Origin: a virus
Lineage: Duplodnaviria; Heunggongvirae; Uroviricota; Caudoviricetes
Virus record (IMG/VR): IMGVR_UViG_2778261223_000002
Strand: one strand, 5' to 3'
Length of the DNA: 19,638 nucleotides
Part shown: positions 5,530 to 6,351 of the stretch, piece by piece
Layout of the letters: every line of letters starts with the position of its first letter
Numbering within the stretch: position 1 is the stretch's first letter
The notes under the pieces: generated by a model
Seen by the model: the letters and a program-made list of their open reading frames with translations, nothing else
Told to the model about the DNA's origin: nothing
The model's database searches: none
Made by a program: the position numbers and the translations under genes

Positions 5530-6105
5530 TTACGCTTTATCGTGAGTCAGTTTTCCGTCAAGAATGAGACGATTGTTTTCGATATGAAGAACCAGTGTTT
5601 CAAGATATTCTGGCTTTAACTTCCACCATTTCATTTTTTTTGCTATTTGTGTCAGGCAATGATTATGGGTGAATATAACGGTAGTTTTATTATCGGATGA
5701 CAATTTGAGTATGTCCTTTGCAGCATCAAGTCCGCATGTTGCAGCCAACGGTATCCGGGAGGCTGCTTTTCCTCCAGAGAAAAAACAGGCTGTCTGCATT
5801 GTCCGTATGGTATCCGTGGAGTAAAGGCTGAATGACGGGAAAGTATTGCTAAATATTTTTCCATAATCATGAGCTTTAATGGCACCATTGACGGTAATTC
5901 CTTTATTGCTTGAGAGACATGCATTTTTGCTTCTGTCACATCGTTCACCGTGACGGATAAGGAAAATTGTCTGGTGTTGTTGATTTATTTTATGCGCCTG
6001 TTTCATATTGATTGTGGTGGGTGTTCTTAAAAAATAAACAAACAAAAGAGTAGTTAAAATCAAAGTGATTAAATAAGTAATTTTCTTTATTTCTCGACGC
6101 TGCAT
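5530..6105 (-). CDS. Ais/PmrG-like histidine-phosphatase-family protein (putative LPS core heptose(II)-phosphate phosphatase), prophage moron
   Basis: Minus-strand ORF 5530..6123 (TTG at 6123, ATG at 6105); N-terminal hydrophobic signal/TM; catalytic RHGERCDRS motif and C-terminal FTHNHCLTQIAK match the recollected E. coli Ais (RHAERCDRS ... FTHNHCLTYIAK); AT-rich gene and flanks. Confidence 0.75.
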   Translation of the reverse strand: MQRREIKKITYLITLILTTLLFVYFLRTPTTINMKQAHKINQQHQTIFLIRHGERCDRSKNACLSSNKGITVNGAIKAHDYGKIFSNTFPSFSLYSTDTIRTMQTACFFSGGKAASRIPLAATCGLDAAKDILKLSSDNKTTVIFTHNHCLTQIAKKMKWWKLKPEYLETLVLHIENNRLILDGKLTHDKA

Positions 6106-6157
6106 ATGAAAAGTCTTTTGCAAAAATAAATGAGATTAAAAAATATATTTCTTAAAT

Positions 6158-6174
6158 ATTAAGAAAATCTTAAC
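6158..6174 (-). promoter_or_regulatory. PmrA(BasR)-box-like direct repeat upstream of the ais-like gene
   Basis: On the minus strand: GTTAAG-ATTTT-CTTAAT (hexamer-N5-hexamer; consensus YTTAAK-N5-YTTAAK), about 52 bp upstream of ATG 6105, with TAATCT/TATATT -10 candidates between. Confidence 0.3.
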
Positions 6175-6351
6175 GCGCAATGTCGTTTGTTGCTTTTATA
6201 ACTTGCAACAGATTGGGTTTTTTGATGTTGAACAATCAGCATTACAGCAGTCCTTCAGTGAGGGGCTGCGATAATGCTGATGTTTAATTGAGCATAAATG
6301 ATAATTTCTCTCATTTTTCATGGGTCCTCCCGGTGGGGTGGCCTTGCCACG

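Follow-up and report, generated by a model that had tools for sequence, protein, structure and literature searches.

In PMC8129183, which cites Nishino 2006, PmrG is described as dephosphorylating heptose II under the control of PmrAB. The PmrA box is composed of two hexamers lying 5 bp apart, namely CTTAAG and XTTAAT in Salmonella (PMC3973317) and CTTAAT and CCTAAG at pbgP of Klebsiella (PMC3973317, PMC10570014), and this box replaces the -35 element (PMC10570014). In this study, an ais-like gene preceded by a PmrA/BasR-box-like repeat was analysed in IMG/VR record IMGVR_UViG_2778261223_000002; the window is the whole stretch of 19,638 nt, and coordinates refer to it unless another record or locus is named. 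The carrier is a lambdoid prophage of pig-pathogenic Escherichia coli, in which the gene is placed after the lysis genes. On a modest balance of probability, the gene is read here as a BasR/PmrA-activated moron that encodes an anchored periplasmic histidine phosphatase removing phosphate from the inner core of lipopolysaccharide (LPS).

The locus shares features with several described systems. Like PmrG and chromosomal Ais, the phage-borne protein belongs to the NCBIfam subfamily NF011945 and has the same length class, the RH(G/A)ERCDRS and THNHC motifs, the cysteines, a putative N-terminal export segment and predicted PmrA/BasR control, but it is only 44-45% identical to the Salmonella arizonae and K-12 proteins, falls in a separate clade and resides in a prophage rather than at the arnB locus. 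Moreover, the phage box points toward its own gene, whereas the chromosomal loci show an arnB-oriented box only, and the phage protein probably keeps its N-terminal stretch, followed by RTP, as an uncleaved anchor, whereas the N-terminus of K-12 Ais looks like a cleavable signal peptide. With bor and lom of phage lambda, the gene shares a position flanked by the lysis genes and cos, the strand opposite to the late operon, its own promoter and terminator, an atypical composition and a presence/absence polymorphism among related phages. Unlike bor, which encodes an unrelated lipoprotein, it encodes an enzyme that would act on the envelope, and its promoter apparently answers to one particular two-component system of the host. 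As with gtrABC glucosylation and oac acetylation, a temperate phage would alter the host LPS from the prophage state; in those systems, however, groups are added to the O-antigen, whereas here inner-core phosphate would be removed and the removal would be gated by a host signal. Host two-component control of prophage genes, the moron concept and the protein family are already known. What appears to be new is that an Ais-family gene recurs in the bor-like slot of several lambdoid lineages, that it belongs to a mobile-element clade and that it has a conserved canonical PmrA-type promoter; a literature search found no paper on this ais-like prophage gene, AfrS or its accessions.

The Ais-like protein and its relatives

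The ais-like gene occupies 5530..6105 on the minus strand and encodes a 191-aa protein of the Ais family (histidine phosphatase, branch 1); automatic annotation already supplies a name for the gene. The minus-strand open reading frame (ORF) at this place spans 5530..6123, starting from TTG. The ATG at 6105 is nevertheless the likely start, because the NCBI annotation pipeline PGAP picks the equivalent ATG in the copy of strain ETEC1738 (WP_032192250.1, a 100% identical protein) and because the starts of homologs align with it. The protein scored 205.2 bits against NF011945 (LPS core heptose(II)-phosphate phosphatase subfamily; Ais/PRK15416), for which the cutoff is 142 bits, over profile positions 37-199 of 201, and its score against PF00300 (His_Phos_1) was just above the gathering score (22.9 versus 21.7 bits). 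Both motifs named in the sequence-only reading were present on the minus strand: the catalytic RHG region RHGERCDRS (R51, H52) at 5929..5955, and FTHNHCLT, the region of the second conserved histidine (H147, N148, H149, C150), at 5650..5673. Alignments of 16 and 29 homologs showed that the catalytic Arg/His residues, C56 and C150 are invariant and C63 nearly so; residues R51, H52, R55, C56, D57, R101, H147, N148, H149 and C150 were invariant in all 29.

A search of the Protein Data Bank (PDB) by sequence detected no relative of the protein. Its AlphaFold2 model, with a predicted local distance difference test (pLDDT) score of 90.8, matched the MutT1 C-domain, SixA, PhoE and PGAM5 in Foldseek with E values down to 4e-8, and the modelled fold is that of a branch 1 histidine phosphatase. 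Pairwise ratios of nonsynonymous to synonymous substitution (dN/dS) were 0.13-0.37, indicating purifying selection on the gene, and between lineages the synonymous sites were saturated or dS exceeded 2. As judged from these comparisons, the gene is a genuine member of the Ais family and not a recent copy of the host ais.

A hydrophobic segment near the N-terminus, suited to export or anchoring, agrees with the secreted or membrane-anchored character proposed in the sequence-only reading. After a basic n-region (MQRREIKK), codons 8-26 (6028..6084, minus strand) encode the hydrophobic segment KITYLITLILTTLLFVYFL; this 19-aa segment is the best hydrophobic window of the protein, with a mean Kyte-Doolittle value of 1.94, and residues 2-27 form a helix in the AlphaFold2 model. 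The RTP that follows the stretch was common to the phage-clade rows of the alignment, and no cleavage site was evident after the N-terminal hydrophobic segment. The helix is probably an uncleaved signal anchor, and with this predicted topology the catalytic domain should lie in the periplasm, next to the outer surface of the inner membrane. The conserved cysteines C56, C63 and C150 fit a disulfide-bonded periplasmic domain.

A rough neighbor-joining tree, calculated without support values, separated three groups: the chromosomal Ais/PmrG proteins, the TraG proteins of IncI1 plasmids, and a mobile-element clade that unites the phage copies with paralogs located by PefC/AfrB-type fimbrial operons. 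These AfrS-type paralogs are the closest non-phage relatives (52-56% identity) and share with the phage proteins both the clade and the N-terminus of transmembrane segment plus RTP, but they lie within fimbrial or regulator clusters, carry no PmrA box and have once been annotated as an activator. On IncF plasmids, such paralogs adjoin PefC/AfrB-type chaperone-usher fimbrial operons (L105:4914-5507; L106:4923-5408; L117:4001-4585), and one of them follows two Rob-like helix-turn-helix (HTH)/GyrI regulators. The truncated prophage copy of UMNF18 is labelled as transcriptional activator AfrS by its source, a label at odds with the phosphatase fold. AfrS is reportedly needed for expression of the AF/R1 pilus in RDEC-1. 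A pairing of the AfrR/AfrS kind within the prophage itself was considered and rejected; the AraC-type ORF of the window (1608-2321) had no significant similarity to the HTH regulators that accompany one of the plasmid paralogs, and its domain order differs.

The TraG protein of IncI1 (R64-type) plasmids is likewise an Ais-family histidine phosphatase on a mobile element with cell-surface biology, but it is only about 40-42% identical, belongs to a distinct clade, has no PmrA box and is encoded inside the tra operon. In PLSDB, about 1,370 of 1,441 matching plasmids matched the P0032-type Ais-family phosphatase at 90% identity or more; 1,383 of the 1,441 were conjugative, and they included 961 plasmids from Escherichia, 383 from Salmonella and 48 from Shigella. 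In the one IncI plasmid inspected, the IncI-gamma/K1 plasmid p53_B (L108:5001-5585), the Ais-family gene lies between traF and traH. PMC4288162, in which the gene is called TraG, gives transposon insertion sequencing (TraDIS) class values of 0.79/0.21/0.00 for TraG versus 0.00/0.00/1.00 for TraH-J; from these values, TraG is tentatively read as not required for transfer.

A recurrent slot next to the lysis genes

The sequence-only reading had placed the gene on the minus strand, convergent with the late operon, in an AT-rich block between the endolysin and cos that corresponds to the slot of bor in lambda, and this description held in each respect. The lysis cassette (holin, holin, M15-family endolysin) ends at 5458 with the endolysin gene (5075..5458, plus strand), which is convergent with the ais-like gene. 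On the other side, cos is placed approximately at 6347..6352 (no strand), the point at which three linear phage records (mEp460_4F5, cdtI and Tritos) start; their position 1 aligned to query position 948 or 953 of window:5400-6500. A DUF1441 (Nu1-like) small terminase gene and then the large terminase gene follow from about 6538. The GC content was 0.32-0.43 across approximately 5400-6600 and 0.52-0.56 on both sides.

Within this region, GC content and homology breaks delimit a low-GC cassette of about 840 bp at 5459..6298 (no strand), which comprises promoter, gene and terminator. The probable intrinsic terminator is a hairpin, AACCCCG...CGGGGUU followed by UUUUGUAUU, at 5463..5501 on the minus strand, 29 nt past the stop codon. 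The predicted folding energy was -16.1 kcal/mol, with z = -2.3 for the minus strand and z = -1.1 for the plus strand; a strict terminator scan did not call this hairpin because the T-run is short. Positions 1-5450 of the window are 99.6% identical to prophages of the pig enterotoxigenic E. coli (ETEC) strains ETEC4090 and UMNK88. In these prophages, an HNH endonuclease and a P27-type terminase take the place of the cassette after the endolysin gene. From 5400 on, the window matches ETEC1738. Homology to phages of the mEp460/phi458 type resumes at approximately 6299-6322. As read from these breaks, the borders of the cassette at about 5450 and 6300 are sharp mosaic junctions. The whole window was found unbroken in none of the complete E. 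coli genomes of the collection. Since related prophages and phages lacking the cassette exist, its presence is polymorphic; it thus combines a promoter, a terminator, an atypical composition and a variable presence, which are the marks of a moron, and it would also be dispensable for the lytic cycle.

With regard to the same slot, the lysis cassette (4268-5458) has neither an annotated nor a recognisable gene for a spanin (Rz/Rz1), and the same was observed in the related loci L111 and L113. The ais-like gene occupies the exact place expected for the spanin, and the Stx-type relatives carry an Rz-like gene ahead of it.

Among the 5,426 complete genomes of E. coli, 28 contained the class of the window, with at least 98% identity within the class. 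The strains include pig ETEC and edema-disease strains, and among the 20 listed rows nearly all were of swine origin and one was human. Further phage-borne lineages, with 85, 63, 59, 57, 56 and 55% protein identity, were recovered from IMG/VR and other assemblies. In every phage-borne homolog examined (55-100% identity), the gene comes next after the final lysis gene, the two being convergent, and this slot recurs with two types of lysis cassette (holin/M15 or holin/lysozyme/Rz) and at least four types of packaging module (Nu1/GpA, ParB with Terminase_2, HNH with TerS/TerL, and the Stx-phage type). The 55% class was present in the Stx1 phage GER2 and in 43 complete genomes (at least 98% identity within the class), including O104:H4 outbreak isolates. 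The family was absent from PHROGs v4 and PADLOC.

The GenBank record of GER2 (MG710528) annotates just the C-terminal 90 codons of the gene (6229-6501), together with an overlapping hypothetical protein on the opposite strand; the full ORF of 193 aa (L003:5920-6501) is present with its promoter intact. In the O104:H4 isolate 2011C-3493, from the lineage of the 2011 outbreak, a moron of the GER2 class with CTTAAGGATTACATAAG-N10-AATAAT (L119:7081-7662) lies in a 933W-like prophage, between an Rz-like lysis gene and the terminase.

The predicted PmrA/BasR-type promoter

The sequence-only reading had noted GTTAAG-N5-CTTAAT upstream of the gene as a repeat close to the PmrA/BasR consensus. This direct repeat, GTTAAG-ATTTT-CTTAAT (GTTAAGATTTTCTTAAT), was confirmed at 6158..6174 on the minus strand. 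Oriented toward the ais-like gene, it reads GTTAAGATTTTCTTAAT from 6174 to 6158 on the gene strand, 53 nt upstream of the ATG of the window. It is the sole match to BTTAAK-N5-BTTAAK in the 19.6-kb window, in which 0.03 matches were expected. Under a first-order Markov model of the 215-nt upstream stretch (30% GC), the chance of the box was 0.0035, and that of the box followed by N10 and a -10-like hexamer was 0.00045. A predicted -10 hexamer, TATATT (6142..6147, minus strand), follows the box after precisely 10 nt, and transcription is predicted to start near 6135, which would leave a 5' untranslated region of about 30 nt. A generic sigma-70 scan found no -35/-10 promoter in the cassette, as is expected of an activator-dependent promoter in which the PmrA box replaces the -35 element.

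Furthermore, the arrangement was conserved in the phage lineages, all of which have NTTAAG-N5-NxTAAK followed by N10 and a -10 hexamer. The repeat lies upstream of the gene and on its strand in every phage-borne lineage examined, and the distances measured from it to the ATG were 64-71 nt. With a spacing of N10 throughout, the box GTTAAGATTTTCTTAAT of the window lineage is combined with TATATT, GTTAAGATTTCCTTAAT of the 85% class with CATAAT, CTTAAGGTGCATTTAAG of the 63% class (L113/L114) with TATAAT, CTTAAGGATTCCTTAAG of the 59% class with AATAAT, and CTTAAGGAT(T/C)ACATAAG of the 55-57% classes with AATAAT. This geometry of box, N10 and hexamer was present in 8 of 8 other homolog promoters, and a plasmid copy flanked by insertion sequences retains ATTAAGCGTTATTTAAG. 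Among seven lineage representatives, the commonest base was shared on average by 6.25 of 7 at the half-sites, 6.75 of 7 at the TTAA cores and 6.0 of 7 at the -10 hexamer, versus 3.9 of 7 at other upstream positions, and the DNA upstream of the box was unalignable between classes. Judged by this alignment, the pattern of conservation is a phylogenetic footprint.

The same layout was found in natural PmrA targets. In 15 of 15 enterobacterial arnB/pbgP promoters, which are canonical targets compared by sequence with presumed start sites, the box is followed by N10 and TAnnnT, and in K-12 eptA by N10 and GAGCAT. At chromosomal ais loci, the only box points at arnB and away from ais. The possibility that the phage promoter is a carried-over arnB promoter was rejected on the ground of this orientation. 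The ais-like gene of the prophage is not divergent from arnB/pbgP but sits between the phage endolysin and cos. No PmrA box was found upstream of the fimbria-linked and IncI1 paralogs.

Two further elements were noted near the promoter. An imperfect hairpin, GCAGCCC-N9-GGACTGC (6247-6269, minus strand), marks the start of the homology between the window and the 85% class upstream of the promoter; in the 85% lineage it has a perfect stem (GCAGCCC…GGGCTGC), and it may be an insulator, a terminator or a recombination scar. Between cos and the box, a minus-strand ORF of 41 aa (6196-6321) with six cysteines (…DCCNADCSTSKNPICCKL) has a GGAGG 4 nt from its ATG; it is probably spurious, because the ATG and the first third are missing in the lineage with 85% identity.

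Proposed function and alternative explanations

The following course of events is proposed for this self-contained mobile cassette, which lies between the last lysis gene and cos and is read against the late operon. In the lysogen, BasS-BasR (PmrB-PmrA) would sense Fe3+, Al3+ or mild acid, and phosphorylated BasR would bind at 6158-6174 and recruit RNA polymerase to the -10 hexamer at 6142-6147, with transcription starting near 6135. The product would be inserted into the inner membrane through the helix at its N-terminus, leaving the catalytic domain on the periplasmic side, where it could take phosphate off the LPS inner core before export; by the precedent of PmrG, the heptose(II) phosphate would be the most likely target. 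The loss of phosphate would lower the negative surface charge, and tolerance to metals or peptides, or effects on receptor-dependent phages, may follow. By analogy with bor of lambda, the antiterminated late transcript would read through the cassette antisense to the gene in the lytic cycle.

Several observations weigh against this reading. Although the protein is of the Ais family, as the sequence-only reading had stated, it is not a PmrG equivalog; it scored 111.8 bits against the PmrG equivalog model NF052369, below the cutoff of 170 that would imply a shared function, is only 45% identical to K-12 Ais and falls in a clade separate from chromosomal Ais/PmrG. The nearest clade includes the fimbria-linked paralogs, one of them named transcriptional activator AfrS by NCBI, so that the substrate may differ. 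Nearly all E. coli carry the chromosomal ais at a separate locus of the same genomes, and a second heptose(II) phosphatase supplied by the prophage would be a mere duplication that calls for an explanation. The Shine-Dalgarno sequence of the gene is weak (AAGAC). Compared with CTTAAG-N5-XTTAAT, the box of the window has one mismatch, the first half-site opening with G instead of C, and in several lineages the second half-site is CATAAG; the verified half-site CCTAAG of K. pneumoniae is similarly degenerate (PMC3973317). Finally, the scaffold numbering of a cryo-electron microscopy study would put the -10 element about 8 nt from the box instead of 10 (PMC10570014). The natural arnB promoters support the 10-nt spacing.

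The strongest of the alternatives, which we regard as possible though clearly less probable, is that the family and the regulation are as described but that the enzyme acts on another phosphorylated substrate of the envelope, such as heptose(I) phosphate or its pyrophosphoethanolamine, the lipid A 1-diphosphate or a periplasmic phosphoprotein, and thereby modulates surface structures such as fimbriae instead of duplicating Ais. The failure to reach the PmrG cutoff and the clustering with AfrS-like paralogs make heptose(II) phosphate an extrapolation, and the separate clade with its members next to PefC/AfrB-type operons, the AfrS label of the truncated copy, the chromosomal ais present in almost all E. 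coli and the different anchor point in the same direction. However, the cutoff of NF011945, the subfamily of heptose(II)-phosphate phosphatases, is clearly exceeded, the protein shares every catalytic and cysteine position with Ais/PmrG, and a PmrA-type promoter suits a regulon concerned with LPS charge. The fimbria-linked paralogs are without the box, so the roles of the subgroups may differ.

A somewhat less probable alternative concerns the function under selection. Prophage genes that modify LPS commonly act in exclusion, through modification of the O-antigen, and the Ais-like enzyme may likewise modify a receptor and shield the lysogen from phages or colicins that depend on a phosphorylated inner core, this protection and not metal or peptide tolerance being the selected benefit. 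The recurrence of the gene in several lambdoid lineages agrees with superinfection exclusion, as does the Ais-family paralog in the transfer region of IncI1 plasmids, the thin-pilus adhesins of which recognise LPS. On the other hand, the protein has no match in PADLOC, and expression conditional on Fe3+ or acid would exclude only conditionally. Exclusion is compatible with core dephosphorylation under BasR control and does not preclude it.

It is improbable that the box is bound by another regulator of the OmpR/PhoB type, for example the PmrA paralog QseB, or merely acts as an AT-rich UP-like element, in which case BasR would not be needed for expression. The assignment to BasR was made by sequence resemblance only, the half-sites deviate from the consensus in several lineages, and cross-talk between QseBC and PmrAB in E. 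coli is described in the abstract of PMC10729948. However, natural arnB promoters have the same TTAA cores, a spacer of 5 nt, the same orientation and the same N10 to the -10 element, and these features are kept while their surroundings vary. The gene is very improbably a captured, decaying remnant without function; truncated copies exist (UMNF18, 150 aa; L009, 160 aa; L024, 144 aa), but the window copy is a full-length ORF with all catalytic residues, dN/dS is low, the promoter elements are conserved, and the two classes present in 28 and 43 complete genomes are nearly uniform in sequence.

If the preferred reading of a BasR-dependent, core-editing moron is correct, a temperate phage has placed modification of the LPS inner core under an envelope-stress sensor of its host, and the PmrA regulon, on which tolerance to Fe3+, Al3+ and cationic peptides including polymyxins depends, has gained a horizontally mobile part. 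The presence of the gene in pig ETEC, edema-disease and Stx-type prophage lineages could then affect gut fitness, surface charge and phage susceptibility. The conserved layout of box, N10 and -10 hexamer also offers a compact natural test bed for the architecture of PmrA promoters. More speculatively, and with a rather low probability, the phage proteins, the AfrS-type paralogs and, distantly, TraG may form a mobile-element clade of anchored periplasmic Ais-like phosphatases that edits a different phosphate of the inner core or lipid A and tunes phage adsorption or exclusion, LPS recognition by pili and fimbrial display, with the phage branch alone rewired to BasSR. Dephosphorylation of the envelope would in that case be a general, signal-gated strategy of mobile elements. 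The clade in any case raises the question of the roles of the AfrS and IncI1 TraG paralogs.

Other features of the prophage

Just upstream of the holin genes, a TerB-family protein of 141 aa is encoded (3755-4329), and a DUF3927 ORF, annotated by PGAP in the near-identical ETEC4090 prophage, lies directly 3' of it; both are accessory genes of the late region. In the interval from the Q antiterminator to the lysis genes, a tRNA cluster comes after an AraC-type HTH ORF of 237 aa (1608-2658, 3303-3384). ARAGORN called tRNAs for Met(CAT), Thr and Gly, as well as a doubtful tRNA-Val of 82 nt; the first of these, called Met(CAT), is assigned to Ile by PGAP in the near-identical ETEC4090 prophage.

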